A DNA stretch of 62,918 nucleotides, counting the filler, from Hausera hauseri (lineage: Eukaryota), in NCBI GenBank assembly GCA_046269625.1. It is 11 parts of 11 records of this genome, joined end to end, with 100 filler letters (N's around TTAATTAATTAA, not from the genome) between each part and the next. Parts side by side here need not be neighbours in the genome. Positions count along the whole stretch, not along the records: positions 50,251 to 58,622 come from JBJURY010668774.1; 10 more parts are not named here. One strand, 5' to 3'. Within the stretch, counting starts at the first letter, position 1. The number at the start of each line of letters is the position of its first letter. Both the position numbers and the translations under genes were made by a program. This document shows positions 2,510 to 62,805 of the stretch, piece after piece. Under the pieces are notes generated by a model, which ran no database searches, was not told the origin of the DNA, and saw only the letters and a list, made by a program, of their open reading frames with translations.

Positions 2510-2719
2510 ATGAGAGTAATGGTATCATCCGAGTGGATGGATGAAAAAGAATGTGAGTTAACTACTTATTCCTATGTAAGGTACATAAGAGAGTGGTTAA
2601 TAAATAATGTCGGAACAAATGAGTTAAATTATAGATTTTACTTTAAAGGTAGAATACTAGACGATTTAGAATAATTAATAGACGTCGGAATTATTCCAGA
2701 AGAAACAAATAGAATAGTA
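2510..2719 (+). pseudogene. Ubiquitin-like (beta-grasp) domain within the polyprotein, copy 1
   Basis: MRVMVSSEWMDEKECELTTYSYVRYIREWLINNVGTNELNYRFYFKGRILDDLE*LIDVGIIPEETNRIV aligns without gaps to ubiquitin 1-70. 15 identities by hand include G35, R42, F45, G47, L50, D52, L56, D58, I61. The stop at 2672 is CAA in copy 2. Confidence 0.65.
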
Positions 2720-5300: not shown

Positions 5301-5675
5301 GCCACATCGTTTAACACAATCGTAGACGGAAACGAAGACCTATGTTCTTATACAAGCGGAAGATCACAAAACCTAATATACGAAGAAATAATTCAGATGA
5401 TGACGAGCCTTAGGAAGCAGAAGTACTTTCGAAAACCGACAAGCACAAGACGTATTCCGTAACTAAAGCACCACTGCCTATGCTACCTCCTACTGCTCCA
5501 GTCTACGGAGACTGTGACAAGCGATCAATGAACTCGCATCAGACAGAAATATATAAGAGGACAATTAGCTTAGTAGACCTCTACGAAGGAACAAAACGTT
5601 ATGGAGTCTTACGAAAAATGTGTTATCGACAACCCATGGATGATTCCACAGTTTTGTATTCTACAAAAGAACCTA

Positions 5676-21151: not shown

Positions 21152-22180
21152 TGAATTTGTGATGCAAAAATCCAACTCGGTGCAGCGTAACCGTTCCACT
21201 TGACGAGATATTCTTTATTCGAACCTTTACCACGTAAACGTAGAATTTCCTGAATACAATATACATCGGGTTTCTCGGGCAGTAGCTGCAGTTCCTGTTC
21301 GTAGAATTTACCGAGTATTTCCTCACCATTTTTATCCTCTAAAACGTACATGACAGGTGTTTGTTTTGTGATGATTGCCAAAATGCGGAAAACCTCGTCG
21401 TTCCAGTTCTGATTAAAATTCTTAATGAATGGCGTCGTACTCAGCCTTGAAATACGTACATAAGCATCGATTTCATATTTTTGGCGTTTAATTGCCGATG
21501 ATTGTGTTCGGTTTGGACAAAGCCACATGTTCAAATCATCGATTACATCAACCGGGCGCATTCCGTTGATTCCACGGTGTGTAGAGTGATTGTATGTATG
21601 AATACTATGCGGCCGTACATATATCCAACGTTTATTGCCTTGCTTTATAAATAATTTGTTTATGCGACCGCGTAATGTTCATTTAAGTCGTTCATCTAGT
21701 GCAGCCTTGTATTGGGAAAACACAGAGTAGTGGTTTACGCCCAACCGTTTCAAGACCGCTGCAACGTGGGCGTTGTAGAATTATTTACCTAAATCTGTTT
21801 GAAAATGCTTCGCCTGTTGTTGTTGTATCAGTGTCTGGACAGCGCCCCAAATCTCTTTACTGGATTTAGATTTCACAGCAATTTCACGTGCAAAAGGACT
21901 AAATACATCAACACATGTCAGCACGTACCGATACCCATCGTTGATGCTGGCGTACGGAACCATTTCTATTAGATTCATTTGCCATACGTTATTTACACCG
22001 GCAGCACGATATGCACGAGTTGGAAACCGCCTTCTTATCGGTTTGTTTAGGCTGTATGCTAACTGTTTCCAGATCAAACGTTGGGCCTGTTGCCGATTCT
22101 GTTTGACAGTCTTTGCCAGTTTGTCGACTCGAGTATACCCGACAAGATGACGCGGATCGAACCACAGGTCGCCCATCGTT
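21148..22180 (-). pseudogene. Polinton retroviral-like integrase with C-terminal chromodomain
   Basis: VWQMNLIEM...NDGYRYVLTCVDVFS...FQTDLGK; YNHSTHRGINGMRP; NWNDEVFRI...YVLEDKNGEEILGKFYEQELQ; chromodomain YCIQEILRLRGKGSNKEYLVKWNGY...SWI. Confidence 0.9.
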
Positions 22181-22599
22181 GTCGTCGATGGTGCTGGTAT
22201 TGCTTGAATTACAACAATTAGAACGAAACGTAAATGAAAGATTCAGTAAACTGGGGCAAAATGATGAAAACCATGCAGTAAAAAAACCGTCACCCAGTAA
22301 TGACGTGACAATCGGAAGAATTGCACCAAGGAATCCGCCATCTTNNNNNNNNNNNNNNNNNNNNNNNNNNNNNNNNNNNNNNNNNNNNTTAATTAATTAA
22401 NNNNNNNNNNNNNNNNNNNNNNNNNNNNNNNNNNNNNNNNNNNNCAAAACACAAAAGACACTTAACAAAGTACATTATTAACATTAAAATAAAACAATGT
22501 ACAATAGATAATTGTCAATAATTGTCACAATATCCAGACCAGATTGAGTTGCCTGTATATGATCTGATCTGACACCACCGTACGTGTTTTATTTCAACC

Positions 22600-25500
22600 T
22601 CCAATATACATGCGCACAACTATTATTTCGCCACAAGTTTTTCGCTTATCATCGTTACATGACAAAGCGACTTTCGCACTAGTTATGGTATATAGCTGGT
22701 GCTCAATTGATCGGATGATCGTTTGAGACACAACAGCTACTGAGTTTCGTCCTTCTGCTGCGGCTGCTGCTGTTTCATATATAAGGCGATAATCACTTGG
22801 CCGATTTCCGCCTGTCTCACATGGACTCCTTTTTCCCGCATTTTCGGTCTACAGTCCGTCAGAAGACTGCAGCACTTTGGGCGTAGGAATATCCATTCCC
22901 AGTATTAGACACGACATTCACTTTCATCCTTGAAGCAGCCGATTTTATTGGTGATCGCGCTGCTGTACAACAGATGATCCCGTGAGTAGTTGAACGTGTC
23001 CAGTAGTCCATCTGACTGCATTTACTGCAGTAGCTGTTCGCGACTGACTTTTCTCAGCCGCAGGAAAAAACTGTCGGTGTCACCGGCAATTATGTCAATA
23101 TTGCAGCCATTATACATTTGTCGGTAACGTGCCAAGTCACGATACTGCAGCTCTTACATCCGCAGCTTGATCAGGTCAAATACCACTTGTCCGATGTAAC
23201 TTGGCCGGTCCGGAACCACTTCTTCCCTGTTTAAGAGCACCGCAACCAATCCATGGGAAATGTGCATTGACCGCAGAAACTGTGCCTTGCTGGTATACGT
23301 AACCAGCCGATTTTTCGAGTTACATAGGCGCACATTCAGCCGCCTTTTCAGATTCTCCACAGTTTTTCTGTACAGGGAATTGTTTTTCAGCTTGTAGTAG
23401 TCCTTTTCGAACTTTGTATAGGCTGCGGCTCGTTTCTCCTAATTTACATATATGTACGCCTTGAATATGGGAGCTGAGCAAATCGGATTGCACGATGCAG
23501 CTGTGTGACGCGTACATCTAGCTGCATGTAGAACTATAGCAGACGCCAATGGACCACGTAATTCTACTTCGGTTCATGCGTCATGAGCAGTTTCTGCATT
23601 TTTGAGCTTAGCGGATATTGGTTAAATGATGCGACCGGTAAATCGTCCAAAACGTCGTGCAGCTCATCTGGTATCTCGAAATCGACTTTCATTAGGTATG
23701 CGACTGAGCTTGCAATGTCTGCTCGTGGTATGTTGACCGCTGTGGCGTCCAGATCTTGTCTGTCCACTACCCATTCAAATGAACCGTACGGCAAGGGTTG
23801 CAAAAGCATCCAGCCGTACAGCTTATTAATATCAATGTACAGCAGTAATGTAATATCGGTAGCACTGACATGATTCTTGTTTTGACAAATGTCATGCTGC
23901 CGCGAATACCAACATCAAACATTCGGTACATTTCCGGGTCTTGAAGCAGCCCAATGTCTCAATTTAGTAACATTAGAGCTGAAGCAGAACTCATTCCCGG
24001 TATGGAATAAAAGTTATGTGGCTCCAACCTATCTTCCGCCAGCGCTTTGGTCCGAAATGCTTGGAACACGTCGGCTAATAAGTACACGTCCAGTTTAAGA
24101 TACTAGAGCATGTAATCCAACATGTTTCTACAGCCCAGTTCTGTCCAAGATTCTTATGCTGTCCGATATTCATCTTCTGCGATACCTGCCCATCGCGGCG
24201 GTAATTCCTCTGTTGTCTGGAGTCGCTTATATGATGTTGCAAAGTCATATGGAAATATTTGCTGCGTGCAATATGTGCAGGGAACTGCGTCAGCGTTATC
24301 GGCACATCTGGTAAGGCACTTACCCGCTTTTCCAATGATTCATTGAGAAATTGCAATGAATTAAGGAAGCGTACCTGGAGTCGGTTTACGCGTGCCCACA
24401 GCGATAGGTACTTCTCCACTGTCGTCGGAATTATGGACAATTTTCAGTGCGGAATGCCGCTAATGGTCCAGTTGAGAATATGGTGTTAGTCATAACCTCG
24501 GAAATGATGAAAGATCACCGGCAAGAATGGTCGCACTCGCCTTGCTAAATTTCATAAATTGCATGCTGCTCCCAAGTATCGACCGGTGAAATGGTCGTGA
24601 TCCGGCACGAGCCGTTCCTGTGCATCAAACGGTATTATTTTGTGGCACAGATAGCATTTATGGTGACAGCGAAATGCAACGGTTGATATTCGTCTGCCCG
24701 AATCAATGACTTATTGTAATTGTTGCGATACCACAGCGCGATTTCCGTTTCCACTAAGGTTTCCAACTGCTGAAGGAAATCATATACACAGTTCTAACCA
24801 TGGAAAATGGAATACTGCGGTTGTCCAGCGGCTTTTATTGATACTAGCAACATACCGACTGCAACCGGAACGTGATTTTTATCGTATATATTGTGCCATT
24901 GTAGAATTGCTTCCATATTGGCACACACCACATATGCTGGACTGTCCGTTTTAGACCAATCAATGAATCTGAGCTCCTTTTTGACGAGCATGACGTATAT
25001 TGTTGTTCCTTATGCGTTTTTTCTGCATAGCGTGACATCATTTGCCCACGTTCTTTCCGATCTGAATCCATGTAAACATACAGGACACCATTTGCATCGT
25101 AGTTTGCTTTTTGATAAACTGGTCATGTTCTATGTTCAACAGTCTATCCAGCTTTGTCACTGCCACGTAATGAAAAATTTCGGCCTGGTCTAACAGCAAC
25201 AAATTTACCGAGCGTCCATTCGGGTTCCGACTGCGGAATAATGATGCCCACATAGGGGTTCTTACAAATTTCTTCGTCTTCCGGTATTTCAACTATTGTG
25301 TTGTACCGGAAAACGTTGGTTGACAGAGTCGGATTACGCCGTTCAAAAGCCCGAATGGTTTTCAGTTTCATCGGCATCCAGCACTAATCAAATTGCAATT
25401 CGGAAAAATACTGCCGATACTGACTTGGACGATTTGTATGATATCTGTTTACTTCGTTGTACTTTAATACAGCCGGAATACAGCACAAAAAACAGTATTC

Positions 25501-25830
25501 GTCGTCATCAGTATTTTGTACATTCACTACCGGCAGAGACTGCTTTAGAGATGAAGGTGTCGGTATGAATGATCCTCCAGACAAATATATTACGTCACTT
25601 GACTTTGTTATGATAAAGCCGATTGTGACAATTTGTATAAGAAGCCATTCACTACCCTCTTCGGTATAGTTGGCGATTTTTTCATCTAACTTTTCGCCTA
25701 AATCGACAAAAAAATCTTCCAAACACGGTACGGTTCGATGTGACAGATACTGTTGTTTCTTATAACCTTCAAGGCTTTCAAATTCTGCAAGTGTATAATA
25801 TTGCACTTTTCAGTTGTAGCGTTTGAATTT
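22600..25830 (-). pseudogene. polB: Polinton protein-primed family B DNA polymerase with endonuclease VII/HNH-like domain
   Basis: GGSFIPTP...VVNVQNTDDDEYCF; CYLC...DHDHFTGRYLGAACN; motif A YIDINKLYGWMLLQPLPYGSFEW; motif B YKLKNNSLYRKTVEN; motif C AGDTDSFF (~23070); KIGCFKDE; KVALSCNDDKR. Many frameshifts. Confidence 0.92.
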
Positions 25831-30980: not shown

Positions 30981-33159
30981 ATGCCGATCATGAGCAAGAA
31001 AGAACAGATTTCAACACTTATTCAGACGTCCTATCCGGCCCTTCAAGATGAATTATTTGATTATGTGAATGATATTTTGATTGAAAACGCTGATACATTT
31101 GTGTGTGTTGCTGAGATAAAGGATGCCATTGAAGGTGATGCTAAATACAATTAGTGAATTTATTAGTTACTTTTGATATTTAGGTATATTAAATGAAATT
31201 GATTCTACAAAATCTGAAGACGATGTCGTTTCTTTATGTGAAGATATTTTCAAAATTTTAAATATCGAAGGCAATCAAGTTAAACAGCCGATTTTACTGA
31301 ACAATCCAGTTTCTATTAGTGATTTAGTCGATAAAACAAAGCCGATTGTCTTTACGGATTTTTCCAAAGATGATTACCTGAAAAATTTGTGGACAACGCT
31401 GATTAGTGACGAAATTATTAAACAGAATTTAGCTAGAGCACAAGAAACAAAGCAAAAGAAACAGAAAAAGGAAACTGACGGAATGCACACGTTATTGATT
31501 AGTCAGCAATTCAGTCGAAATAATAATTTGAATGAAGCGGATAAAGATTGTAGCAGCTGTGATGGAAAAACAACAATCGTAAATTTTACAATTGATAATT
31601 TTGATATGTCCTTTGGAAGTAAAGTTCTACTAAAAGAAGCCTCAATATCCATTTCAATCGGTCAACGATATGGTCTGGTGGGTCGAAATGGATTGGGGAA
31701 AAGTACGTTGCTGAAAGCCATCTATTCCGGTGATTTGAAACTTCCGGCAAAAGTATCTGTTTTGTTGGTCGAACAAGAAGTTTTTGGCGATGATACTAAA
31801 GCCATTGATAGCGTGTTAGAATCGGATGTTGTTCGACATAATTTGCTCAAAGAACAGGAAACACTGAGCAAAATATCAAGTAAAGAACAAAATTCCAGAC
31901 GTCTATTTGAAATTTACGAAAAACTAAACGAAATTGAAGCCGATAAAGCTCCAACGCGTGCAGCGTTAATTCTCAATGGTTTGGGATTTTCATCAGATAT
32001 GCAACAGCAACCGACCAAATCATTTTCCGGTGGTTGGCGAATGCGATTATCGTTGGCAAAGGCACTTTTTTGTCAACCGGATTTATTGTTACTTGATGAA
32101 CCGACGAACATGTTGGACATGAAAGCAACGATTTGGTTGGAGGAATATTTGAAAACGTGGAAGAAAAGTCTGATTGTCGTTTCTCACGATCAGAAATTTC
32201 TCGATTCCGTTTCCACGGATACGCTCTATTTACATTCGTTAAAGATTGATCATTACAAATGCAATTTTACACAATTTCAAGTGGCATTGGAGAACAAAGT
32301 CAGCGCACAAATCAGAGAATATGAAAGCCAAAAATTATACCGGGAGAGTGTTCAACGGTTCATCGACAGATTCCGTTGTTATGCCAGTAAGGCCAGTCTC
32401 GTGCAAAGTAAAATTAAACTACTCGAACGACTACCGGTCATAGAAATGCCGGAACCGGAGATGGAAGTCGTATTTGATTTTCCGGAATGTGGCAATTTGC
32501 AAACGGTCGCTATTCAGGCCGATGATGTGTGTTTCGGATACGACGACAAACGGACTGTCATAAAGAATTTGGAAATCCAGGTTAGTTCCCAGAGTCGTGT
32601 GTGTATCGTCGGTGAAAATGGTGCCGGTAAATCGACTCTACTCAAATTGTTCATGGGCCAATTGGATCCACAGGGCGGTATGTTGAGAATCCACAAGAAT
32701 ATCAGATTTGGCTATTTCTGTCAGCATCATGTCGATCAACTCGACGTTCAACAATCGTCGTTGGACTTTCTTCGTTCGTCATATCCTGGATACGAACCAC
32801 AATACTATCGGGCGAGACTCAGGTATTTTGGCATCAATGGTGAGATGGCATTGAGACCAATTAACAGTTTGTCCGGTGGTCAAAAGTCTCGTGTGGCATT
32901 CGCCATTCTGTTCTTGAAAAATCCGAATTTTCTCATTCTTGACGAACCGACGAACCATTTGGACATGCAGACGATATCGGCGTTGGCCGAGGCAATCAAG
33001 AAATTTGACGGCGGCGTTATTTTGGTATCTCACAATGAGAAACTGATCAATGAAGTGTGCAATGAACTGTGGCTGGTGGAGAAGAATGGTCGTGTTAGTA
33101 TTGTTGATGGAGGTATTGGTAAGTATAGAGAAATGTTGTTGAAAGAATTGGAATGTTGA
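30981..33159 (+). CDS. ABCF3: ATP-binding cassette subfamily F member 3 (GCN20 homolog); exons 30981-31134 and 31184-33159, 709 aa (706 if the ATG at 30990 is used)
   Basis: Two ABC domains (GRNGLGKST/FSGGW/LLLLDEPTN; GENGAGKST/LSGGQ/FLILDEPTN) and no TM. Removing the 49-nt GT..AG intron joins an ABCF3-like N-terminus (ELFDYVNDIL...) in frame with no stops. Confidence 0.93.
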
Positions 33160-45894: not shown

Positions 45895-48800
45895 GCTAAC
45901 TGAAAGGGATTTAATTGAGCTAATTAACGTAAACATTACTGAAAGTAAGTTAAGACAACTTATTCCGACCTCAACTAAATTATTTAGTGAAAGTACAATT
46001 TATAGTACGGTGCCGAAACTTTTGATAAGGAAATACGCTAAAATTTTTAGGGCTAGACATGAGGTAACGATGAAAATAATGGTATCATCCGAGTGGATGG
46101 TTGAAAAGGAATGTGAGTTCACTACATATTCTTATGTAAGGGACGTAAGAGAATGGTTATTAAATAATGGTGGAACAAATGAGCTAAATTACAGAATTTA
46201 CTTTAGATGTAGAATACCAGACGATTTAGAACAATTAATAGATGTAGGAATTATCACCGCCAAAACAAATCGGATAGTACTAATAATAGCCAATGAACAG
46301 ACGAAAGAAGAAGCCACACGAAAAGCCAAGACAGACCAATGCATAGGACAAATTATGGGAGTCCGAGATGCTGCAATATAATTCGAGTATTTACAGACGG
46401 ATGAAAATAAGGAACAATACGACAAAAATTTAACACCACTCAGCGAAGTGATAGCCAATGTTCCAAGACTGAAACGCTCAGACGATAGGCCTAAGAAAAC
46501 GCGAGAAGAAGTGGACTACAATGGAGAATTGATTAGAGAACTGAGACAAATGTCAATTCCGACTTTCAGTACAAACAATGGGGAATTAAACGAGTTAGTG
46601 AAGAATTTAATACGAATTGTAAATTATTCAAGCCTTCGAGGTGATGTATTAGATGATAAAGAAAATATAATATTTGATGCAGCTAGAATGATGAGAATTT
46701 CACGTTTTAAACTATCAAAAAGTAACTTAGCCGATGAATCGGTTATTGAAAAGGTCATAGTAGAAAACACTAATGAGGAACTGAGAAAAGTATTACTATA
46801 CTTAGCTATTAAAATAAAACCTAATCGACAGAATGAAATCAATAGAGCTGTAAGCTTAGCACGAGAAGCGGCGAGAAGATTGCCCTGCGAAGTAAATTGG
46901 TCAAGACTGTTTGACAAGGAAGAAGACAAACGGACCAGTAATAAACTTGACGATATGTTACGTAATTTGACAACGGCGGATGTTGTCCACCCGAAAAATG
47001 AATCAAATTGGCTAATCCGTCTACTTAGCCTGATGATGCTAATAAAGCACATAAGCGCTGTTACCATTTACGACTGCGATAAGTTTAAATTAGGGCAAAT
47101 ATATTCCCTAATGAATCTGGAAGTGTGCGAAGACGCCAGACCACACAAGTTGGAAACAAGAGAGAAAAATTATTTCCTGTACCAACATAGCGGACATTGT
47201 TACGGAGCGGAATACGACACTGGGAAAGGATTGCAAGCTAAAGTGGTAGTCGAGGATTTTTACAAATTGGAGATGCGATCACAGAAAGTAATGTTCCATA
47301 GTGTCACCAAGTTATACATTGAGAATCAGAAGTGTCATTTACAAGACAAAACCTGTGCTTTTAGAAGTTCTGTTATAATATGGGAGCCCCCTCTGGACGA
47401 AGTTGTAATTTTATTGAAATTAAGGAACTGAAATTTAATGAAACTACCGGAAAGCGATATGTGGATATATCGGATACCAACTCAAGGACACGCGAAGATA
47501 TATCAGAACACCCTACACCCAATATATTAATATCGGATCAGCATGGACTGATATTTGTTAAAAAAGAGATGATCTCTCGTTGTGATGCAGTGATGTTTGC
47601 TACTAACTATGAGGCACTTTTTGTCGCAGAAACGGAAATAAATGCAAAGACTTACAAACTAGAAACGTAGGATGTCCGAAATGAGGATTACCTGAAAAAC
47701 AGAGACAATTACTTCTATTACAAAAGGCAAGTAGGAATAACTGAATTATATTACAAAATGATAACAAATGACTGTAAATTGGATACCGAGATCATGAGGA
47801 CAAAATTAGCTCTTATATATGCCAACCCAGAATTGACTTCTACAATAATTCGTATGAGAGAGGGAATTTTCGGTCGGGTCACGGGCGAGGTACTGCTAAC
47901 CTACTAATGCGAAAAGAAAGATGTACCCATCAACGTTGAAGGAAAACGTTGCATTCAGGAACTCCATGTCATTTATCAAAATACTCCCAGGTTAGCTACA
48001 CCGTTGATGAGAGTGTTACTGGATAATGCAACCCAACCAACCATCCTTAGAGATTGTAAGGCAATCTTAGGAGAGTCCATGTTTAGACACAGTGAAACAA
48101 ACTGGGTTAGTATGCCAAATGGAGGTATCACTGCCGCTCTAAATAAATTAATAGGAACAAACCTTGCGAAAGGAGTTACGGACGATAAATTTCAAGACAC
48201 ATCGTCAAAAGGCATATACAGGCCTAAGGAAATCGAAGCCTTCAGACAATTCCTCGCTTTTCCGCGACAACGAACACATGAATTAAACCGAGCCATGGCC
48301 TCGGTAGATGATACACAATATTAGTCTAAATGGGAATCTTTACTTGACGTAAACCATTATCAGCGAGTAACCACAGAAATACTCTACAAAATTTGGGGAA
48401 GATTTTTGATTTTCGGACAAGCCGCATCCGGATTCTTAGCGATATATTTTCTGATACAAATGATTAAAGCAGTCATCCAAGCAGTAATAAATGGGTATGA
48501 AATATTTACATTGACTGGATTTTCATGTAAGATACTGACTGCAATCATAATGCCCTTTGGAAAATTCTTAAAAGCATACGAAGAAAATAGATGGAAATCA
48601 GACGTAGAACGCCATGTCCGTTATTATAATCGTAAACGAAAAGGAAAGCATATATTCTTGCAAAAGCGGAAATTTACAAAATCTAATATAAGAAGAAATA
48701 ATTCAGATGATGAAGAGCCTAAGGGAGGAGAAGTACTTTCAGGAATAAATAGACATAAGATGTACTCTGTCATTAAAGCGCCGTTGCCTATGCTACCTCC

Positions 48801-50150
48801 TACCGCTCCAGTCTATGAAGACTGTGACAAACGAACAATGAGTTCATATCAGACGGAAATCTATAAAAGGACAATTAATGTAAAAGACCCTTATGAAGAA
48901 ACAAAACATTACGGAATCCTACGGAAAATGTGTTACCGACAATCCGCGGAGGGTCCAAAGATGTTGTATTTTCCGACAGAACCTCAAAATATAAAAATAG
49001 ATCAACGATTTGGGATAATCCGAGGTTAAAAGACTTCCAAAATACCGAATTACACACTAACGATCGAGAAACATTAATTAGTGCACACGAAATGGAAGAA
49101 TTAAACATAGAAAACAACAAATTATATCGAAATGGAGAATTAAGGTAACTGGCAGAGAACATAGTATCCTCCCCAAAAAACCGAATCAATGGGCATAAGA
49201 TATCGGCAATAAAACGATCAAAGGATGCAGCAAACTGCTTCGGAACGGTGAAAGAAGGAAGACTTTTCGCCAAAGTCATTATCGAAGATAGGAAAGTTTA
49301 TGCCCTAATCGATGCAGGGTCCGAAATGTTTTACATTAAAAACGATTCAATACCTCAATCGTTAAGGGGACAATTATACCCACCATTCACAAAAGATCTA
49401 GGGAGTACAGGAGCTTTTGGTCAGATGTCGAAATCCATGTTTAAATGGAACCCAGAAGTCCAAATAGTTGGACAAATTTTTCGTCATGAATTTGCAGTTA
49501 TGGAACAATTAACCGATGACGTAGTCTTAGAATGTGATCTACTGAAAAGACTACCAAATATAGTGATCGACTTACAAACGGGGAAGCTGGTAAAGATCGG
49601 ACGGAATAAACGTATAAAAAACGCCAAAGAAAGAAAATTTGGAGAAGTATGGATACCTGTAGACGAAGACATTTCACCAAGAACAGAAATGATAATTTAC
49701 GTCCAAATACAGCAAGATGACGACCAACCGGTATATTTTGAACCACAAAATACATTAGATTCGAATATAATACTCAGCAATATACTAACAAGAGTACACT
49801 CCGGTCGGGTGCCGATCAGAATAGCTAATAACGCACAGATATTCGTCAGGCTTCATGCTTATACCACTCTAGGAAATACCTATAGAGTATCGTCAATAAC
49901 TAATGAAGTAAAACCTTACAAGTATGCTGAATTGCCACCTTATGTCGAAATTAAGTTTTAATCTCAGTCTTATTGTCGATTCTATGAATTATTATGCCGC
50001 TATAAATCAATTATCGCTAAGGACGAAGAAGATATCGGTAGAGCGAAAGCGTTAAAACTGATGATTCCACTGAAGAAAAATCATGGTTCGAACGAAAAAA
50101 TAGACTTGAAAGACCAGAAGATGACAAAATGGTACCCTCCGCCACATTCA
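45895..50150 (+). mobile_element. Decayed copy 2 of the env-bearing retroelement: UBL - helical - class III glycoprotein - tail - protease - pol start
   Basis: Colinear with 2325-5675. UBL 46070-46279; signal peptide and VTIYDC at ~47006-47077; TM ~48400-48560; retropepsin downstream. Confidence 0.8.
49149..50150 (+). pseudogene. Retroelement aspartic protease, beta-rich linker and pre-RT segment (Ty3/Gypsy-type pol start)
   Basis: VIIEDRKVYALIDAGSEMFYI (D at 49311)...HEFAVMEQLTDDVVLECDLLKR. Linker ISPRTEMIIYV...GRVPIRIANNAQIFVRLHAYTTLG. After one stop, in the same frame: FYELLCRYKSIIAKDEEDIGRAKALKLMIPL (cf. LL..Y.D.F......LG.T....H.I.L). Confidence 0.8.
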
Positions 50151-50250: not shown

Positions 50251-52530
50251 TTTCGCGACGAAATATGAATTAAAAGTTCCTGAGTATTCTCCCATTGAAA
50301 ACATCCACAGACATCAATCGGAACTGTCTTCTGAAGTCCTTTTCGTCGTTCCAGTATCGTCCCAAAATCGGATGCCAACAATAGTGAATTGTTAACAATT
50401 CTCATTACCAAACCGGTTTCACCAATTTTTGCAATGCTATCGAACGAAATCGAATCCAATGGCACAAAGACGTTAGTCTTATCCATTATTTTCAATTCCA
50501 TATCGGGTTCCCTCTCCCGTTTTGATTTATCCACATTGAAATTCGTAACATTCCACGCAAAAATCCCATCCATGCAACCAGCAACAAGATAGTTGTAATG
50601 ATCAAAAAAGACCAGATCCAAAACCGAATTCAAATCCAAACGAGGACACCGAAATCTCGATAATATCATGAAGTGCTGCATCGTACTGCCATTAGTCATC
50701 GGCACACCGATATCCCACATTAACACTGATGCTTTGGCGTCACCACTGAAGAGAATTTGAGGTTGAGATGGATGGAAGAGCAGAGCAGTGATGTCTTCTG
50801 TATGACCGGTCATATCGCAATACTTCACCGTATCAATGTAAAACATTCGGATTTCTCGTAATTTTCCTCCAGCAACTAGGATGTTTACTTTCTCACCACG
50901 GGCCGTGGCGAGCGTGGTCCAAGCCAGAGTCATAAATTCCTACGAACATAGAAATCTGTAACCTGTCAAAATCGCGTACTTCTCCTTCTCGTCGGAATTT
51001 TCGTTCAACAATGTTGTTTTGTTTAGAGCATTTGATTAAACAAACGTATTCGCTCCCGCATGTGGCAATTCGATGAGTAGTGGCATTTCGGTAATTCGGG
51101 TTCAGTTCGAATTGACTTTTCCAAATTTTGACGTTTTTCATTTCATTATACTGTCCGGAATCTTCTTTTCCGTGACATCTCAGAAACTCTATTGAATCGT
51201 AGTCGATTAAGCCGTCTTTAATTTTGTTTTGAATACAGACGTCTGTTAAAGTTCTAACATCTTTCTGATTACGATTTTTCGGACGTCCTGTCTATTTATT
51301 TGGCACATCAATATCTTGCCCTTCAATAGTTTCCATTTTCTTGCGTTTCGGTTTGACTTTGGGCGGTGTACCACGTCTCTTTTTATCACTGTCTATCGTA
51401 CTACTAGTTTTATTTTTATCCAGTACTCTTTCTCGAAGCGGATTTTTGACAGTTTTTTTTGTAAATATCCGATGCCATATAACCCTTGACGTAGTCTTTA
51501 TTTCTCATTTCATCCGGCAGAAAATCAGCCAATGGTTGGCATTTGACTTTGCCTGGTGAAAAGATTATGAAAACTACGCAGCGCTTTTCGGTTAATGTCC
51601 GACCGATATGAAACGATGGAACCACATCCTGGCAAATGTACTGAGTTATTTGGCCATTGGGATCAGATCCAAGAAAATGTGTCTCTTTAACTTCATCCTG
51701 TACGTTTTTTCCTAAAATCTCGTCAATTTCCTGTTGCATTTCTGAACACTGTGGAGTAATCTTCAATGTATTTCTGTACGATTGCGTTTTTGTCAACGTT
51801 ATTCAAATCGCACTCGCAGAATAAACCAGAATACTCCTTTGGATCGATGTTTTCATCTTCCACTAAACAATCTTCTGTTTCCAATATTTGCGATTTAAAA
51901 TAATTTTCCATAAAATTCAAAATCAAAAGATCCTTGTACTTTTCCTAATTTTCATCTAATGAAAGACTTTCATATTTCATATCTTTAATGAGCAGTTTAA
52001 TCAATCCCAACTTTTCGCTCGTCGTTTTCATTAAACGATATCTATTTACGTATTCCATACTCCATCGTCTTTCAATCTTCAGTTGCAACGGCTGTTGTAG
52101 CGCGCAATTCATTTCATTCACCATACTTTCCCGATTTTTAACAACGAACACATTCCCATTTAACACTTGAATTTCGGACAGAAATAGACCAAACTGGAAA
52201 AATCCAACGTCTTCAGATAGCAATCATCAATTTTGAGGTCAAGTAATTGGAGAAACTGTTCAATAAATAGAGTCGTTCGGAAATAATTGTCGTTGATGTA
52301 CAGACATCTGAGTGATGGAAAATATAGATCCTTGGGAAAGTCGTTGAGAAGGTTATTGGACAGATCAAGAACTTGTAAATTAATACATTGACTCAAGTCG
52401 TCGATGTTTATTCTCGTATAATTTCTGAATGATAGATTCAAAACTTTGACGTCTTTCAGATTCGAACATTTTGAATGCATAAGAATATCCTCTGCTGAAA
52501 TAACTGAGTCAATTTGCTCTACGGTCATGT
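50251..52530 (-). pseudogene. LRWD1: LRWD1/ORCA-like LRR + WD40 gene, frameshifted, 3' end cut by the contig edge
   Basis: N-terminal LRRs (VKVLNLS...LQVLDLSNNLLNDFP...EQFLQLLDL); WD40 part FLRCHG...IWKSQFE...IATCGSEYVCLI...LAWTTL...GHTEDITALLFHP...VLMWDIGVP matches LRWD1. A short intron near 50940-50980; several frame changes. Confidence 0.8.
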
Positions 52531-52769
52531 CAATTGGAGTATCTGTTTGTATCCTTCTGACAAAATCCCACTTCTGACACTATTGTGGGTTCACAATTTT
52601 AATTATTTCCACCATTTAAGAAAAGCACGGAAATATATCCACAAATTTTATTTTAAATTCCAAAATTCAATTATCAATAATAATTTTGATATTCATATAC
52701 AGATTTAAAAACATATAAACATACACACATATATACATATTTATATACAGTTCATATTACATCTTGAGA

Positions 52770-55200
52770 ATTTTGTAATGCTGAGTTTTGAATATTCGAT
52801 GAATATTTTTGTTTTGGCAGAACAACAAGAAAACACTCGAGCAAAACTTTTGTTGAGGTATTGGTTAACCTGCCTTTGAACTTTGTTTCATATATCGCTT
52901 GTCGTTATATTGTTAGAGAATCTCTCAATCTCAAACAGGAATCCACAAATTCAAATTGTTGTAGTTTTGATGAGACACCAAGACACGACGAGACAAAACG
53001 ACAAAATGCATCAATTCGTCGGCACAACAATTAATAACAAATAAAAAAATATGTAAAGGTCCTTGTTGGGCACAACATTAACCGCCCCCCCTCCCCCCGT
53101 GGCAAAGCAAAGAATGGAGAGGTAAGAAAGTAGAAAATGGGTAGAAACTGTATATGCAGTCTAAGAGGTTTTGTGTGGGTAAGACGTTGTACTCCTGCAG
53201 TGTTTATCTCCTTGTTTTAGGTCCTAAAGGTGACTGATTTGTGAATTTTCAATGTCATGGTTCCTGCTTGTGCAGGTGATTGAGATACAGTAAAATCGAA
53301 TTTGGTCGTGTTAGGTGTTGTTTCATACAAAGACGGGGAAGGAGATGGAGGATAAGATGTAGGAGAAGAGGGGGTAAATGTTGTTAGGGTAGTAGAATCG
53401 GAGATTGGAGGAGGTTATGGTAGAGAAGTAGAAATAGGGGTCGGCTTGGAAATGGGTGCAGGTGGTGGAGGAACTGAAGGAAGAAAAGGTGGAGGAGTGA
53501 AAAAGGAGGTAGAAGATTTAATTTGGGGAATATCATCTACGAAAAAGGCAGGCTTTACGTTGTTGATATGTACTGTTAGTTCCTTACCGTCTTTAGAAAT
53601 AATTGCATTGTGGGAATGCAATTGAATGAGTTTGTAGGGCCACAAATACCGTGGTTGAAAACCGCACGGCGTCTGGTTTTTCAGCCAGACGAACTTTGCC
53701 AAATATAAATTCTCCGATAAGTACGTTTTATTGTTATTTACGATCCTGCAGAAGGAATCTTTACTAACTGAGATAAAATGGTCCTGTGCCGTTCGGATAG
53801 CTTCGTCTGTAGGTGTATCTTCCAAGGCAGTTAACTCAAATAATGGACGTACAGGTGTTTCGAAAAGAGCTTCCGAAGGTGAACAGCCAGTAGAAGTAGA
53901 AGGGGTGTTACGCCAACCCAGAAGAACCAACGAAAGAAGAGTAGTCCAACTGCTGTTGAATTCTGCTAGTATTCTCAGTGACATTTTTAGTGTTCTGTGG
54001 AATCTCTCTAAAAGACCGTTCGATTGGGGGTGATACGGTGATGTGTGAATATGGCTGATTCCTAATCTGTTAACGAGCGATTTAAACAAATTGTACTCGA
54101 ACTGAGTACCTTGGTCTATAAGAATAAATCTAGGAGATCCAAATTTGCTGATCCAAGTGCGTATGAAAATGTCGGCTATTGTGTCCGTGTTAGTGCTCCG
54201 TAGTGGGACAGCTTCTGGCCAACGTAAGAAACGATCCATCATTGTTAAAATGAACTGATGGCTATTGTCAGGAAGAAGAGGACCAACGAGATCAACATGA
54301 ACAAATCCGAAACGTAATGTTCAAGGGAAATGATAAAATGGTGGCTTCAAATGTTTGGTGATTTTAAATTTCTGGCAGGCCACGCACTCCTTAACCCACG
54401 CTTCACACCAAAACGCATAGTCGATAATATTACTTGCCGGTGGAGTAAGCGAAAAGTTGCATTAGCACCAGGATGGTGCAATGAATGTACACTGTTAAAC
54501 GCTTGCCGTTGTAAAGGTGGTGCGAGAATTATTACGGAATGACATGGTTTAAAAATGTCTAAAGCCACGCCGTCAACAATTGTGTAAGACTTAAAAGAAT
54601 TAAGCATGTCCTGAGGTGGCCAGTTTTGTTGTAGTTGTACTTGAGAGAAGATTGGTGAAAAATTAATTGTACCAACCGTTCTGCATAAGAAATCGGCGAC
54701 TAAATTATTAACGCCGTTGATATGTTTGATATGGAAACTAAATGTTTATAGATACGATATGCGTCGCTCTTGACGTGTAGATGGGTGTTTCATAGACATA
54801 ATATTGACTAAAGGTTTGTGATCAATTTGAATAACAAAACTGCGATCTGTAAGTGGGAGAAATGTTTTAAGGTCAAAACTATGGCTAGTAGTTCTCCATC
54901 GAATGTAGAATACTTAGTTTCTGGTGGTGTTAATTTTCTAGAAAAAAATTTGAGTGGTTGGTTTTCGCCTTTGTATAACTGATGTAACACAGCGTCTTCC
55001 GTCGTGGTTGAGGCGTCTGTGGTAAGAATAAGTTCAGCGGCCGGCTTAGGAAATGCCAGAATTTCTACGGTTTTGAGGCCTTCTCGCAGTTTGTCAAACT
55101 TATCAAGAAAATCAGGTGTTCATTGGTTAGGTTAATGTTTTTTGCCGCCACTTAAGTCAGCAAATGGTGCTGTAAGTTTAGAGCAGTACGGCACATACTG
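52770..55200 (-). mobile_element. Ty3/Gypsy RNase H-integrase fragment with PPT and probable 3' LTR
   Basis: TTDAST...KYSTFDGELLAI; HSLHHPG; RWPEAVPL...DQGTQFE...SPYHPQSNGLLERFHRTLK. PPT GCCACGGGGGGAGGGGGGG (minus 53103-53085), then TGTTGTGCC at 53077. Confidence 0.9.
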
Positions 55201-55204
55201 CTAA

Positions 55205-55923
55205 TGAGGCCGAATATTTGATGAATATTTGATTCTTGGCAGAATAACAAGAAAACATTCGATCAAAACTTTGTGGTATTACACTTATTAAAGTAAAATC
55301 TGGTTGGTTAATGTAGATAGGTTGATAATACTACATTATATGTCTGCTAAAAGTAATCGGTGGATCAACAAAATTTTATCCGATGATGTTGACTGTCAGT
55401 CTTATTTGCCAACTGATTCGTTCAATGGTAACTTTAATGCTAGAAACCATCGACGAAAGAGCCATAAATATAACTGATGAGGTGAAGAACGATTTCGTCT
55501 GGAAATGAACAATCTGTGTCTCATGGTGACGACATTACTATGTCGAGGAGCCAATATGGGGAATATTAGCATAAATGAAATACATAGTGACAATAAATTT
55601 TCGATTCTCGACACAATTTAGAAACTAATAAAGATTGGGACTTATTTGTTTGAAATTAGATTGTTTGTCTGACGTTAGAATATGGACGAACTTCCTGAGA
55701 CATCTTAGAGATTCTTTAACTCTAGATCACTGTAATTTTGGATTGTTGCTGTACGGATCTGACGGTTGCACATAAATATAGCTATGATCTGTCACGGTGA
55801 TAAAACCATAATCATGCATTGAGTTGTCGACAAAACAAAAAAAATAAAATAATAAAAAAAATTAACAATGAATGAGAAAACAATAAAAAAATCAAGGTAG
55901 CACGACACTTGTTTGGCACAACA
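55205..55923 (-). repeat. LTR-like sequence related to 52790-53077
   Basis: Both begin TGTTGTGCC[A/C]AACAAG on the minus strand and share a ~60-nt block (52790-52850 vs 55213-55272). Confidence 0.5.
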
Positions 55924-56419
55924 AGATGGTGTGAAATATTTTATTTAAAACATGTTGTCATGTTTAAGTCGTTGATGTACAACGTTGTGTAGCCACCATT
56001 TGACTCACCACTTTTGCTCGTTTTGCCCCGGTTTGGATCAATAAAGCAAGACGATTTCTGGAAAGGGCAGAACTATGTCCAGAGGTTGGCCAATCCATAG
56101 TTTTTGCGATGACACAGAAGGCTTCCAAAAGTCTATAATTGGCTAGATACCTCATAATCAAAATTAGATGAAGCCAAACAACAAAGGTCATTCAGAAATG
56201 AAATACTGATCATTTGTTCTTCAGTGGCTTTGTTATATATTGGGGTGGCCCTTAACGATCTCCCACTATATAACAGTATTTTGCTCTTGAATTTGAATAA
56301 CTTACGCAGATTCGATTTAACGTTCTCGTTAAATGAATGTGCCAATATGTGACGAGTTTGATAATGTGGGTACTGCTTGCCGTATCCTGTGCACGGTTTA
56401 ATTAAAAAATTTTCGTACT

Positions 56420-57016
56420 TATGTAATTTTAAGTGAAATTTTAACCTTTATATCGTCGAATCAGCCTTAAGAACCGAAGAGAAACTATATAGGGAATTTA
56501 GAACAAGTAATTCACACTTACAATATAATAAACCAATACAGATATCGTCACTCTCAATAATCGTCAATAATGTCGAATAGTGAATTTGCCAGATAGACTT
56601 CGGTTTTCAAAAGACTGTGCTCTCGTCCACTCTTTAATTTTAAATTAACGAATTTTTCTCAACTTTGCCTTCACAACCGACTCCTAAGTCGATAAAAGAT
56701 ATCCCTATACTGCCAGGAGCATTGACTTAAATAGTAGTCTACCGTGTAGGCGTTTTATTAACCTTTCAATTTTTAAATTAAATACGTACAGTTTCTTTGG
56801 CTATTAAATTCGTTACACTGATTAATAAATCAATGAAATTAATAAATAATATGTACAATTCTACTACTATTCAATTTCAATTCTGTAACTATTTAATTCA
56901 TCAATAATTAATATGTACAATGGTAGTGGCAACCTATTCTTCACGATGTGTTTAATCTGACAACAATAGCTGATCTGATTGATAGTGATAAGTGATTTAC
57001 AACATTTCTCCTCCCT
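56420..57016 (-). repeat. Candidate PPT (57016-57005) and 3' LTR starting TGTTGTAA at 57004; far end uncertain
   Basis: 12-nt purine run directly before TG; minus-strand AATAAA at 56759-56754; non-coding AT-rich sequence follows. Confidence 0.5.
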
Positions 57017-58622
57017 GAGCGACATCCTCGGATGTGCCCATTGCGTCAGGAGAAGTGGCGCCATGTGACCTAGGATCTCTTAGCCGGTCCATCCTTTCTT
57101 GCAAGTCTGATGGGGAGTCTGACCTATCTTGGCTCGTTGAGGGTCTGGTTTCGAAACTATAACTATAATGGGGTTTTATTCTAACCACTCGAGTGTAACT
57201 TCCATTCGAATAATATTTTAACTCGGTGGCTTCTGCACGGCATACTGGGCATGTGGTTTTTCCGTTATCTAGGGTCCATTTTTCTAAGCAATCCCTGCAA
57301 TACTTATGCCGGCAATTCTTATTATCTAATATCACGTATCCCTGTTGCAGGTTTGCTTCGCATACGGGGCATTCATTTTCTTCCTTGCCCCAATCATCTC
57401 GATCTAAGTTGACTTGGATTACCACTTCGATTGGTTTGACAACAATTCCATCTCTGTCTTGATATAGGTACCCGTGGATCCTCTTTTGTTTTGGATTGAC
57501 TGAACTTTTTCTTGGGTCACAATCCACCTGGATTAGTGTCCAGTCCGTTACGAATTCTCGATCTAAGTCGGGAATCTGCCCTTCTACCTTATATTTCTGG
57601 TATTGTTTCTTAAGTAAAATTCTGATCTGCTTGTTTACTGGGACTACTATTTTCCCAGTTCTTTTGGATTGGAAAATCGACGTAAGATAGTTACCGAGTT
57701 TGGGGTTTTCCCAGATGTATGTGTTCTCAAAAACCTCTCTCGCCGGAGCCATCTTTACATAAAATACGGCTTCTTTAATCATTTTCTTGCTATAATATTT
57801 TGTGGTGACTAACATTCTAGGGAAATTTTGAGTCGTTTTGTGGTGCACGTTTCCTTTGTCTTTCCTTTTTACTAAAAAATTGACTTCTTTTATTGTAGGG
57901 CTTTGAACTTTCTTTTGAACGAAATTTGTTTGCTTTGATGTGCTTGGTTGGTTTGACAGTTCTTCTTCCTCTCCTACTTGATTCTCTTTTCTTTTCTTAA
58001 ATAAGTAGTTATAAATGGATAGGGTTCTCTTGGTTTTAGTTGGTATTTTTGTTTTGATTTCGTCCAGCTTCTGTAGAGGTTCCATCGATTGTTTTGTTGT
58101 CGGCTTGGGATGAATTTCTTTTTGTTCTTCTGTCGGTTTTTGTACTGTAATTGTGAGGTTGTTTCCCCCTCTTGGTTTAATGACTTGCATTGGAGAATAT
58201 GATTTGATATCTCGACGGTATTGATTGTCTATATTTTCGGGTGTTATGGAACTCTGTAAGTTATTCATTGGACTTCTGGGGGCCCATTCATGTTCCCATC
58301 TAAGAGATTTATTTATCTCCTGCAAATAGTGAGAACGTTGTCGAGTTGATACACATCTTGGGATTCTGTTAGGATCCTGAATCATGGCTTCTATCATTAA
58401 CTTTAAAAAGGCTTCAGGCGCTGTTGACTGATTCCTGCCTTTTGCGGTTTCCTCCATCCTTTTCTGAACTACTGGATGGGCAGCTATTTCCCTAAATCCG
58501 GCAATATTTGCATCGGATATCCCTAATAGCTTTAGTTCTCCCCGTACATGGTATCCCGCTACCATACATCCGTAGAGACAGTGTTCTACTTCGCGGCGAA
58601 CTTGCCTTATGTCCTTTCCGTT
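56997..58622 (-). CDS. Intact intronless ORF (>=541 aa, open to contig end) with C-terminal C3HC4 RING finger; probable last ORF of an LTR element
   Basis: CPVC...CRHKYCRDC...W.......CPVCR. The last codons (cAGGGAGGAGAAA TGTTGTAA) form a polypurine tract followed by TG. Confidence 0.75.
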   Translation of the reverse strand, partial: NGKDIRQVRREVEHCLYGCMVAGYHVRGELKLLGISDANIAGFREIAAHPVVQKRMEETAKGRNQSTAPEAFLKLMIEAMIQDPNRIPRCVSTRQRSHYLQEINKSLRWEHEWAPRSPMNNLQSSITPENIDNQYRRDIKSYSPMQVIKPRGGNNLTITVQKPTEEQKEIHPKPTTKQSMEPLQKLDEIKTKIPTKTKRTLSIYNYLFKKRKENQVGEEEELSNQPSTSKQTNFVQKKVQSPTIKEVNFLVKRKDKGNVHHKTTQNFPRMLVTTKYYSKKMIKEAVFYVKMAPAREVFENTYIWENPKLGNYLTSIFQSKRTGKIVVPVNKQIRILLKKQYQKYKVEGQIPDLDREFVTDWTLIQVDCDPRKSSVNPKQKRIHGYLYQDRDGIVVKPIEVVIQVNLDRDDWGKEENECPVCEANLQQGYVILDNKNCRHKYCRDCLEKWTLDNGKTTCPVCRAEATELKYYSNGSYTRVVRIKPHYSYSFETRPSTSQDRSDSPSDLQERMDRLRDPRSHGATSPDAMGTSEDVAQGGEML

Positions 58623-59100: not shown

Positions 59101-59334
59101 CCACAAAATAATATTTTTAAATGATAGCTATCTGAAATAATTATTTAATTATAAGATAAAGATAAAACATTTAAAAAGGATTTAGTAATGCATTTAAACT
59201 AAACATTTCTTCATAAAACATTGAAATTTTTTAGATTTACAGACGATTGATGTTTTGTTTATATTTCCAATTTACATATTGTCTTTCGAATATAAATTAT
59301 AGCTGGTAGCTCGAGCGCAGTTATGAATAAGGAC

Positions 59335-62300
59335 CACGAGTGAGATGTGGTTAAAGTTGTGGCAATGAAAGGTGTTGAGAGATGTAGTAGTGAAAGGTAT
59401 TGAGAGGTATGGTGGTGAAAGGTGTTGTAGTGATAGGTGTTGAGATGTGTGGTGATGTAAGGTGTTGAGAGGTGAGGTGGTGAAAGATGTGGTAGTGAAA
59501 GGTGTTGAGATGTTTGGTGATGTAAGGTGTTGAGAGATGTGGTGGAGTAAGGTATTGAGAGGTGTGGTGGTGAAAGTTATTGTAGTGAAAGGTGTCGAGA
59601 GTTGTTGTGGTAAAAAGTGTGGAGTGAAAGTTGTTGATAGATGTGGTGATGTAGGGTGTTGAGAGGTGTGGTGGTGAAACGTGTTGAAAGTCGTTCTGGT
59701 CAAAGATGTTGTGGTGAAAGGTGTTGAGAGTTGTGGTGGTTTAAGGTGTCGAGAGTTTTTGTGGTGAAAGGTGTGGTACTGAAAGTTTATGAGAGGTGTG
59801 GTGATGTAGGGTGTTGAAAGGTGTTGAGAGTCGTTCTTGTAAAAGGTGTGGTATGGAAAGGTGTTAAGATGTGTGGTGGTGTAAGATGTTGAGACGTGTC
59901 GTAGAGTGAGGAGTTGAGAAGCATGGTGGTGAAACTTGTTGTAGTGAAAGGTGTTGAGATGTGTGGTGGTGTAAGGTGTCGAGAGTTTTTGTGGTGAAAG
60001 GTGTGGTACTGAAAGTTGTTGAGATGTGCAATTATGTATGGTGTTGAGAGTTGTGGTGGTGAAAGGTGTCGAGAGTTGTTGTGATAAAAGTTGTGGTAGT
60101 GAAAATTGTTGAGAGGTGTGGTGATGTAGGGTGTTGAGAGGTGAGGTGATTATAGTTGTGGTAATGAAGGGTGTTGAATGGTGTGGTGGTGTAAGGTGTT
60201 GAGTGGTGTGGTGAAGTAAGGTGTTGAAAGATGTGGTGGAGTAAGGTGTTGAGAGTTGTGGTGGTGAAAAGTGTGGAGTGAAAGTTGTTGATAGGTGTGG
60301 TGATGTAGGGTGTTGAGAGGTGTGGTGGTTTAAGGTGTTGAAAGTTGTGGTGGTGAAAGGTGTTGAGAGTCGTTCTGGTGAAAGTTGTGGTATTGAAAGA
60401 TATTGGGAAGTGTGGTGTTGTAAGTTGTTGAGAGGTGAGGTGGTGAAATATCTGATAGTAAAAGGTGTTGAGATGTGTGGTGGTTTAAGCTGTTAAGAGT
60501 TGTTTTGGTGAAAATGTGGTAGTGAAAGTTGTTGAGAGTTGTTGTGATGTAGGGTGTTGAGAGGTGAGGTGATGAAAGGTGTCGTAGTGAAAGTGTTGAG
60601 ACGTGTGGTTGTTTAACGTGTTGAGATGTGAGGTAGAGGAAGATGTGGTTGTGAAAGTTGTTCAGTGGTGTGTTGATGTAGGGCGATAAGAACTGAGGTG
60701 GTTAAAGGTGTGGCAGTGAAAGGAGTTGAATGGTGTGGTGGTATAAGTTGTTGAGATGTGAGGTGGAGAAAGGTGTGGTAGTGAAAGGTTTTGAGAGGTA
60801 TGGTGGTGTAAGACGTTGAGAGGTGTGGGTGTGAAAGTTTTGGTTGTGAAATGTGATGAGAATTATGGTGGTGTAAAGTGCTGTATTGAAAGGAGTTGAG
60901 AGGTATTGTAGTGTAAGTTGTTGAGAGGTGTGATGGTGAGGGGTGTTTCAGTGAAATGTATTGAGAGTTGTGTAGGTGTAACGTGTTGAGAGGTGAGGTG
61001 GTTAAAGCTGTGGAATTGAAAGGTGTTGAGTAGTGTGGTCCTGTAAATTGGGGTAGTGAAAAGTGTCGAGAGGTATTGTGGTTATGTTGTTGAGCGGTGT
61101 GATGGTGAAAGGTGATGATAATTATGGTAGTGTAAGGTGTTGAGAGGTGAGGTATTGAAAGCTGTGGTAGCAAAAATGTTGAGAGTTGTCCTGGGTTAAG
61201 GAGTTTTCCCGTGTGGTGTAAAAGATGTTGTAGTAAAAAGTGTTGAGAGGTGTTGTGGTAAGACCTGTGTTACTGAAAGGTGTTTAGAGTTTTGGTGGTG
61301 AAAGTTGTGGTAGTGAAACATATTGAGTGGTGTTGTGGTGAAAGGTGTTGTAGTGAAAAGTGATGAGAAATGTTGTGGTGTAAGGTGTTGAGAGTTGTGA
61401 TGATGAAAAATATATTAGTGAAAATTGTGGAGAGTTGCGGTGGTGTAATGTGTAGAGAAGTGTGGTGGTGAAAGCTGCTGTAGTGAAAGGTGTTGAGATT
61501 TATGGTGGTGTAAGATGTTGAGAGTTGTGGTGTTGAATGATACTTTAGTGAAAGGTGCTGAGATGTGAGGTGGTGAAAGATGTTTTAGTGAAAGGTGTTG
61601 AAAGTTGTGGTGGTGTATGGTGTTGGGATCTGTGGGGGTGACAAGTGTTGTAGTGAAATGTGTCGAGAGGTGTGGTGGTAAAAGTTGTGGTAGTGAAAGA
61701 TGTTGAGAAATATGTTGATGTAATGTGTTATTGTGAAATGTGTGGAAAGTTGTTGTGGTGTAAGGTGTTGAGACGTGTGGTGGTGTAAGCTCTTGTAGTG
61801 AAAGTTGTTGAGAGTTGTGGTGGTGTAAGGTGTTGAGAGGTGTTGTGCTGAAAGGTGCCTTACTAAAATGTGTTGAGAGGTGTGGTGGTGTAAAATGTTG
61901 AGAGTTGTTGTGTTGAAAGGTGTTGTAGTGAAAGGTGTTGAGTGACGTGGTTGTGTAAGGTGTGGTAATGAAAGGTGTTGAGAGGTATGGTGTTGTAAAT
62001 TTTTGAAATGTGTGGTGGTGAAAGGTGTTGTAGGGAAAGGTGATGAGATGTATGGTGGTGTAAGTTGTAGAAAGCTATGCTGGTGAAAGATATTGTACTA
62101 AAAGTTGTTGAGAGGTGTGGTGGTGTAAATTGTTGAGAGGAGTTGTGGTAAATGTTGTTAGTGAAATTTGTTGAGAAATGTTGTGGTGAAATATGTGGTA
62201 GTGATAGGTCTTCAGATGTGTGGTAGTGTAAGTTGTTGAGAGGTGATGTGGTGAAAGGTGTGGTTGTAAATTGTGGTGAGACGTGTGGTAGTGTAAGGTG

Positions 62301-62805
62301 TTGGCAGTTGTGGTGATGAAAGATATTTTAGTAAAATATGTTGAGAGGTGTGGTGGTGAAAGTTGTGGTAGTGTAAGTGTTGAGTGGTGTGGTGGTGTAA
62401 GGTGTGGTAATAAAAGTATTGAGTGGTATGTTGGTGAAAGGTGTTGTAGTAAAAGATTTTGAGAGATTTGGTGGTGTAAATTGTTGAGTGGTGTTGTGGT
62501 GAAAGTTGTGGTAGTGAATATAAGGAGAGGTATAATGTAAGATATCGAGAGTTGTGGTGGTGAAAGTTGTGATAGTGAAATTTGACGAGATGTATGATGG
62601 TGTAAGATTTTGATTTTTGTGGCGGTGTAAGATGTGGTAATGAAAGATGTTGAGAGGTATGATGATGTAATGTGTTGAACGTTGTGGTGATGGAAGGTGT
62701 GGTAGTGAAATATGATAAAAGTATGGTAGTGTAATATGTTGAGAGCTGTGGTAATGTAATGTGTTGTAGTGAAAGGTCTTGAGAGGTGTGGTAGTGTAAG
62801 GTGAG
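59335..62805 (+). repeat. Degenerate GT-rich satellite
   Basis: Shuffled units of ~10 nt (GTGTTGAGAG) and ~15 nt (GTGTGGTGGTGAAAG / GTGTGGTGGTGTAAG); almost no C on the + strand over 3.5 kb. Confidence 0.95.

Follow-up and report, generated by a model that had tools for sequence, protein, structure and literature searches.

A RING-finger reading frame, probably the last gene of a high-copy LTR retroelement, in Hausera hauseri

The bdelloid LTR retrotransposons Juno and Vesta carry, past pol, a non-envelope ORF3 with a 3'-5' exonuclease fold of the DnaQ superfamily; in the accessible text of Rodriguez et al. 2017 (PMC5408684), this exonuclease is RNase D-like (DEDDy), its DEED residues are intact, and no RING is reported. 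The same text has ORF3 typically made from spliced or subgenomic RNA (PMC5408684), and the available part of PMC6338049 also lists an exonuclease among the accessory domains of LTR elements.

The giant Gypsy element Burro (GYPSM1) of planarians, as presented in the accessible text of Arkhipova and Yushenova 2019 (PMC6431247), has a fusion env of mononegavirus type between gag and protease, an order that is also found in two broken copies of an element described below, on contigs 1 and 9 of our data. Burro has a Ubi/SUMO-like domain before env, and its ubiquitination-related cargo includes an AIR1 'RING Zn-finger' motif; this cargo sits in an ORF1 of 4,900 amino acids or in an upstream ORF, and the same text describes no 3' exonuclease-RING ORF (PMC6431247). 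The accessible text of PMC8532177 adds no domain information on Burro-type elements. The HSV/gB-type GAG-ENV-POL errantiviruses of nematodes, bryozoans and flatworms share gene order and env class with contigs 1 and 9; no RING, exonuclease or ubiquitin appears in the main text or the seven supplements of the survey that presents them, whose scope leaves aside other ORF layouts (PMC13524379, available text).

We analysed a stretch of 62,918 nucleotides of Hausera hauseri, called the window below, which consists of short contigs joined by N-spacers and contains T-box, LIN-9/DIRP, LRWD1-like and ABC-F host genes, a set that indicates an animal. The LRWD1/ORCA-like gene, at 50251-52600, has LRR and WD Pfam matches, is broken by introns or breaks, and adjoins a retroelement cluster. 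Positions 59242-62800 hold a degenerate satellite of about 3.5 kb, with GT-rich units of 10, 15 and 25 nucleotides, an extreme strand skew (C 5%) and a G-rich unique end. ORF fragments at 20700-25800 resemble integrase and polymerase pieces of Polinton/Maverick elements.

On the contig at 50251-58622, a reading frame encoding a RING finger runs along the minus strand from 58622 to 56997: it comprises 541 residues and a stop, and its 5' side is open at the contig end. Only one relative, P0002, emerged from 5.8 billion proteins (1 of 4400 candidates) and from 1.84 billion representatives. P0002 has 870 amino acids and is encoded on a 16,242-nt contig; the RING ORF aligns to its residues 302-870 with 40% identity. 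Parts of the stretch are also contained in three public sequencing runs, X1, X2 and X3. The features of the locus are the following.

56997..58622, minus strand: RING ORF, 3' part of a probable accessory ORF; 541 codons, 5'-truncated by the contig end, with a full length of about 870 amino acids judged by P0002
58458..58622, minus strand: residues 1-55, C-terminal half of a DEDDh-like (DnaQ/RNase T-like) fold called from P0002, which includes the Exo II-like motif GYHVRGE
57825..58187, minus strand: basic linker, poorly conserved (34/106 identical to P0002), K+R 21%
57387..57824, minus strand: middle domain, no assigned family, 71/141 identical to P0002
57237..57371, minus strand: C3HC4 RING finger, with all eight ligands and W449, P459 and R462 in both homologs
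57005..57016, minus strand: polypurine tract AGGGAGGAGAAA, in frame, part of Q-G-G-E-M
56422..57004, minus strand: putative 3' LTR of 583 nt, TGTTGTAA...TTACA; its start is well supported, its far end is a candidate, and diverged paralogs occur in X1
56754..56759, minus strand: AATAAA, candidate polyadenylation signal, 238 nt past the ORF stop

At the composition found here, the chance of 541 stop-free codons is about 4e-17. The preliminary description had announced at least 541 codons with neither stop nor intron; the first part stands, and the second is supported by colinearity with P0002 over the whole length, rather than by RNA. The ABC-F gene, at 31177-33159, runs for 660 uninterrupted codons, so that long intron-free host frames do occur in this genome.

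The eight zinc ligands of the RING are arranged as C418-x2-C421-x15-C437-x-H439-x2-C442-x2-C445-x12-C458-x2-C461 (nt 57371-57237), which is the C3HC4 spacing, and the Pfam families zf-RING_2 (E 6.8e-9) and zf-C3HC4 (E 3e-7) match the ORF above their curated cut-offs; the RING had rightly been called canonical. Residues 413-470 share 42 of 56 positions with P0002. V420 is present in both homologs, as are W449, P459 and R462; we take these four to be the loop-1 hydrophobic residue, the helix Trp, the Pro and the linchpin Arg that usually contact the E2. A two-sequence AlphaFold model is confident at the RING only (blocks 66-76), and the model of the whole P0002 (pLDDT 31) is unusable. Assuming that the ORF is the terminal ORF of an LTR element, it is quite likely that the protein is an active E3 ligase.

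Viral RING E3 ligases such as herpesvirus ICP0 and baculovirus IE2 and PE38 resemble the protein studied here in having a C3HC4 RING that is encoded by a mobile element and is plausibly nuclear and directed against host restriction, and they are among its weak fold matches; the analogy is limited to the RING, and fold searches with the model gave RING-level matches only, none of them at E up to 0.001. Between the RING and the start of the ORF, the middle domain has no usable Pfam, Atlas or fold match, and the linker has basic clusters, KKRK at residues 209-212 and KKRRK at residues 547-551 of P0002, that would be NLS-like.

The last codons of the ORF are spelled AGGGAGGAGAAA (57016-57005) followed by TGTTGTAA (57004-56997). 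The combination of AGGGAGGAGAAA and TGT is unique on both strands of the window, being the sole run of at least 10 purines with at least 5 G that is followed by TGT, which bears out the preliminary reading of QGGEML* as a polypurine tract, then TG. AATAAA, placed by that reading about 250 nt further on, does begin at 56759, 238 nt past the stop. In P0002 the QGGEML end is identical at 6 of 6 residues, and the tail just before it at 10 of 38: a conserved end after a divergent tail fits, as far as a comparison of proteins can indicate, a polypurine tract and LTR start held under constraint at the DNA level. The best candidate for the far end of the LTR is TTACA at 56422, which is a guess because no second copy of the LTR was found in the window by BLASTN of 54700-58622 against it. 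The candidate LTR folds no better than its shuffles (z 0.13), and no Pfam-type family was found in the six frames of 55400-56422. Just past the candidate end, a short high-copy repeat at 56131-56410, with an X1 depth of 5,511 and no Pfam family, could be part of a longer LTR.

The RING ORF belongs to a mobile sequence present in many copies and is no single-copy host gene. Contigs of X1 are identical to 50596-50907, 51523-51896 and 55977-56258 (among the pieces listed, 24 of 8387), and this run appears to come from the same or a very close organism, of which it may be the source sample. Its summed contig depth, which is not a copy number, is 5.6-12.5 for the host gene (50531-51930), 2,100-22,623 for the RING ORF and 97-191 for the LTR candidate. 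Firmer evidence of repetition is consequently given by the variant sites 57342, 57635 and 58186, found on 38, 35 and 20 different X1 contigs respectively (among the rows listed, 40 of 1371); copies are counted here as variants among contigs. Variation of single sites across 20 to 38 contigs, among those rows, speaks against the single-copy locus that the preliminary description had put forward as the opposite case. A 273-nt X1 paralog of the LTR-like part shows 41 substitutions (among the pieces listed, 24 of 8387). X2 and X3 contain ORF-like contigs and leave the host gene uncovered, and in the integrase and ORF bins the depth of X2 tracks that of X1 at some 1/27 to 1/124 of its value. X2 may thus represent a minor fraction of the same organism, and was not counted as a second species or as a sign of horizontal transfer.

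The RING ORF is very likely the terminal ORF of an LTR element. On the contig that ends at 58622, neither gag nor pol nor a 5' LTR is physically linked to it. Other elements of the window that bear on its parentage are listed here, along with a copy of its polypurine tract.

45895..50150, plus strand: contig 9 copy, broken, of a GAG-ENV-POL-type element that encodes a Monjiviricetes-type fusion protein followed by PTAP and a protease-like ORF
1-5675: contig 1 copy of this GAG-ENV-POL-type element, 79-80% identical to the contig 9 copy, also broken
48722..48732, plus strand: exact 11-nt copy of the polypurine tract, AGGGAGGAGAA, on contig 9 between env and the protease-like ORF
52595..55884, minus strand: decayed small Ty3/Gypsy element on the 3' side of the LTR of the RING ORF; it has RNase H, integrase and, at 53098, a G-run tract of its own

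The integrase at 53418-54320, on the contig of the RING ORF, was considered as its parent and ruled out, on account of its position on the 3' side of the LTR and of the separate G-run tract that belongs to it. It is related to those of small Gypsy elements on other contigs, and in two small Gypsy copies the G-run tract comes right after the integrase, with no space for a RING-type ORF. In one X1 contig (among the pieces listed) 52594 is joined to 55885, which weakly suggests that the Gypsy element at 52595..55884 is a separate insertion. A direct repeat of 61 nt (87%) at 52790-52850 and 55212-55272 flanks this decayed element; as its second copy is within sequence on the RT/RNase H side, it may be the trace of a rearrangement instead of a pair of LTRs.

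In contigs 1 and 9, Pfam recognizes Monjiviricetes_fusion with E-values of 1.5e-16 and 7.3e-7, and this class III env precedes a protease-like ORF that was called by motif, by eye, and whose DDI1-homolog match stands at E 1.9. Both copies have the PTAP motif past the transmembrane part, in a Burro-like layout; on contig 9 the env and protease frames overlap, where env ends, at about 48897-49029. A putative UBL of contig 9, called by eye, has no Pfam or PDB match. The ties between this env element and the RING ORF are of two kinds. The window contains the 11-mer AGGGAGGAGAA in two places, the polypurine tract and 48722, when 0.02 occurrences are expected (14 of 3000 simulations); this second copy was noticed after the fact, and contig 1 differs from the tract at 48722 at 3 of 13 bases. 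The tract at 48722-48732 is a possible central polypurine tract, of the sort known for Ty1, EVADE and HIV (PMC7197481, accessible text).

As had been remarked from the first inspection, the A-rich coding strand of the ORF resembles that of the env element: its A content is 0.39, against 0.38 in the ORFs of contig 9, whereas two host ORFs have 0.32-0.33 and the small Gypsy ORFs range over 0.26-0.33. The second tie is synonymous codon usage, which was compared with four hand-chosen groups. The log-likelihood of the RING ORF is -559.5 under the env element, -583.6 under the small Gypsy elements, -600.7 under the Polinton-like set and -607.9 under the host; the lead of the env element is thus 24 log units on small Gypsy and 48 on host, and it is the best fit in 988 of 1000 bootstraps, for a classifier that assigns 26 of the 32 training ORFs correctly, a figure inflated by paralogous copies. 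From this indirect evidence, codon usage and the 11-mer, the env element of contigs 1 and 9 is somewhat favoured as the parent.

It is somewhat less probable that the RING ORF is the terminal ORF of a different LTR family: an env-less Gypsy or BEL element, or a non-autonomous element that carries only cargo. BLASTN within the window finds no overlap between the contig of the ORF and contigs 1 or 9, and no homolog links them: searches for homologs of the contig 9 ORFs, weak and limited in length, returned 0 of 3244 candidates on the env side (612-2000 amino acids) and 0 of 2496 for the protease ORF (733-2090 amino acids), so that the 16,242-nt contig of P0002 is untied to the env element. An A-rich codon usage may moreover be common to several families. 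The rotifer exonuclease ORF3s, too, are found in env-less lineages (PMC5408684, accessible text). Against a different family stand the codon usage itself and the exact copy of the polypurine tract in contig 9, and the small Gypsy family of the window, which has another tract and no ORF3.

The DEDDh-like fold, which the preliminary description had overlooked, was recognized in P0002 at residues 246-345 approximately, upstream of the RING. The structure-linked matches are DnaQ 8h18, at E 8e-4 with the whole P0002 and 1.5e-4 with a piece of it, and PolC, at 4.5e-4 with a piece; Pfam RNase_T matches at E 0.012 and four DnaQ/PolC models of NCBIfam at E 0.004-0.011, the former below and the latter far below the cut-off. 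The top three Atlas clusters for P0002 are RNase_T clusters, with scores of 0.87-0.89, at the level of leads. Each match is weak, and the families fall below curated cut-offs, yet all are consistent with a DnaQ/RNase T (DEDDh) fold. The half of the fold retained in the RING ORF (residues 1-55) gives no match when searched alone with Pfam, NCBIfam and a further search; 27 of its 55 residues are identical to P0002.

At Exo I of P0002, the D and the E of the motif align to A and N, and at Exo II the D aligns to M: three catalytic acids are replaced, and P0002 is thus probably a pseudo-nuclease. The RING ORF starts inside the fold, past the Exo I sequence, and has an E at the Exo II position (GYHVRGE). 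The same element could then encode, in the lineage of the window, an active exonuclease that trims the ends of RNA or cDNA, with a RING that regulates the element's own particle. The acid retained at Exo II agrees with this, as do the rotifer ORF3 nucleases, which keep their catalytic residues (PMC5408684, accessible text); we consider it unlikely, P0002 having kept fold and RING without the three acids. Compared with Juno and Vesta, the RING ORF and P0002 have DnaQ/RNase T (DEDDh) matches instead of an RNase D-like DEDDy domain, acids that are lost in P0002, and a fused RING. Inactive DEDD folds that retain RNA binding are found in the piRNA factors Maelstrom and EXD1 (PMC5408684, accessible text); these are host genes that lack a RING, and no sequence match of theirs to the RING ORF or P0002 was found.

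P0002 also bears on the 5' side of the gene. It begins with Met, and its only families above the Pfam cut-off are those of the RING. In the 300 residues of P0002 upstream of the start of the RING ORF, no integrase or chromodomain is found at E up to 10, and its first 240 residues gave no assignment in whole-protein searches and an Atlas search from residue 50. The initial Met and the missing integrase favour a stand-alone ORF over an extension of pol. Scans of loci for the neighbourhood of the ORF confirmed 0 of 165 pattern matches in metagenome contigs and 0 of 13 in viral contigs, and none in phages.

The preliminary description had proposed either a terminal ORF or a post-integrase extension: repetition and the PPT/LTR-like end support the former, and P0002 argues against the latter. 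For the extension to hold, the RING ORF would have to be the C-terminal part of one long pol polyprotein, released by the protease, and the Met of P0002 would have to be spurious, produced by a stop further upstream in a copy that has decayed. Burro does pack many domains in one polyprotein (PMC6431247, accessible text), the RING ORF is open at its contig end, and P0002 is a single record; with 300 upstream residues devoid of the expected matches and no longer relative among the 1.84 billion representatives, we hold such an extension to be quite improbable. Very improbable, finally, is an expanded host RING family or a non-LTR mobile cargo (Polinton-like, Penelope-like or of a DNA virus) whose purine-rich end is due to chance: the window has Polinton-like pieces, presumably, and no paired LTR, large DNA viruses have many RING proteins, and rotifer Penelope-like elements share exonuclease ORFs (PMC5408684, accessible text), against which weigh a single relative in 5.8 billion proteins, unlike a conserved host gene, the heavy diversity of copies, a conserved end coded by the polypurine tract, and host and Polinton-like sets that are the worst fits in codon usage.

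Overall, the RING ORF is probably the stand-alone last gene of an LTR retroelement of Ty3/Gypsy type and high copy number, in the position of an ORF3. Its final codons overlap the polypurine tract and the opening bases of the putative 3' LTR. The protein consists, in this order, of an N-terminal region without an assigned family, a putative DEDDh exonuclease-like fold (probably dead in P0002), a basic linker, a conserved domain, likewise without an assigned family, and an intact RING-HC. In the mechanism that we propose for such a gene, a spliced or subgenomic RNA would serve for its expression, as it typically does for an ORF3. The basic cluster of the linker may direct the protein to the nucleus, where the dead nuclease fold could bind RNA or DNA and thereby bring the RING to nucleoprotein or host silencing complexes; by ubiquitylating host silencing or restriction proteins, the RING could then keep the element expressed. 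We offer such an anti-silencing role tentatively, its target and its benefit to the element being the least supported steps. More doubtful is the full scenario in which an env-bearing GAG-ENV-POL element of invertebrates, with a central polypurine tract behind env, would have filled the 3' slot vacated by env with a nuclear E3 of counter-defence, ICP0-like, that docks on RNA or chromatin through its dead DEDDh fold and destroys silencing factors.

Accessory ORF3s as a mode, exonuclease ORF3s in rotifers, and RING or ubiquitin-related cargo in Burro are known; what appears to be new is the combination of DEDDh-like and RING domains. No description of a 3' exonuclease-RING ORF was found in the literature searched, the scope of which stops short of Repbase, subscription papers and bioRxiv supplements. 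To our knowledge, counter-defence proteins encoded by transposons have seldom been identified in animals. An intact RING and a nuclease-like fold, kept across two lineages that are 40% identical, make this gene a testable candidate for one. It would also be the second time, apparently independently, that a fold of the DnaQ superfamily has been captured in the ORF3 slot, and the idea of ubiquitin tinkering proposed for Burro would extend to a separate 3' gene.
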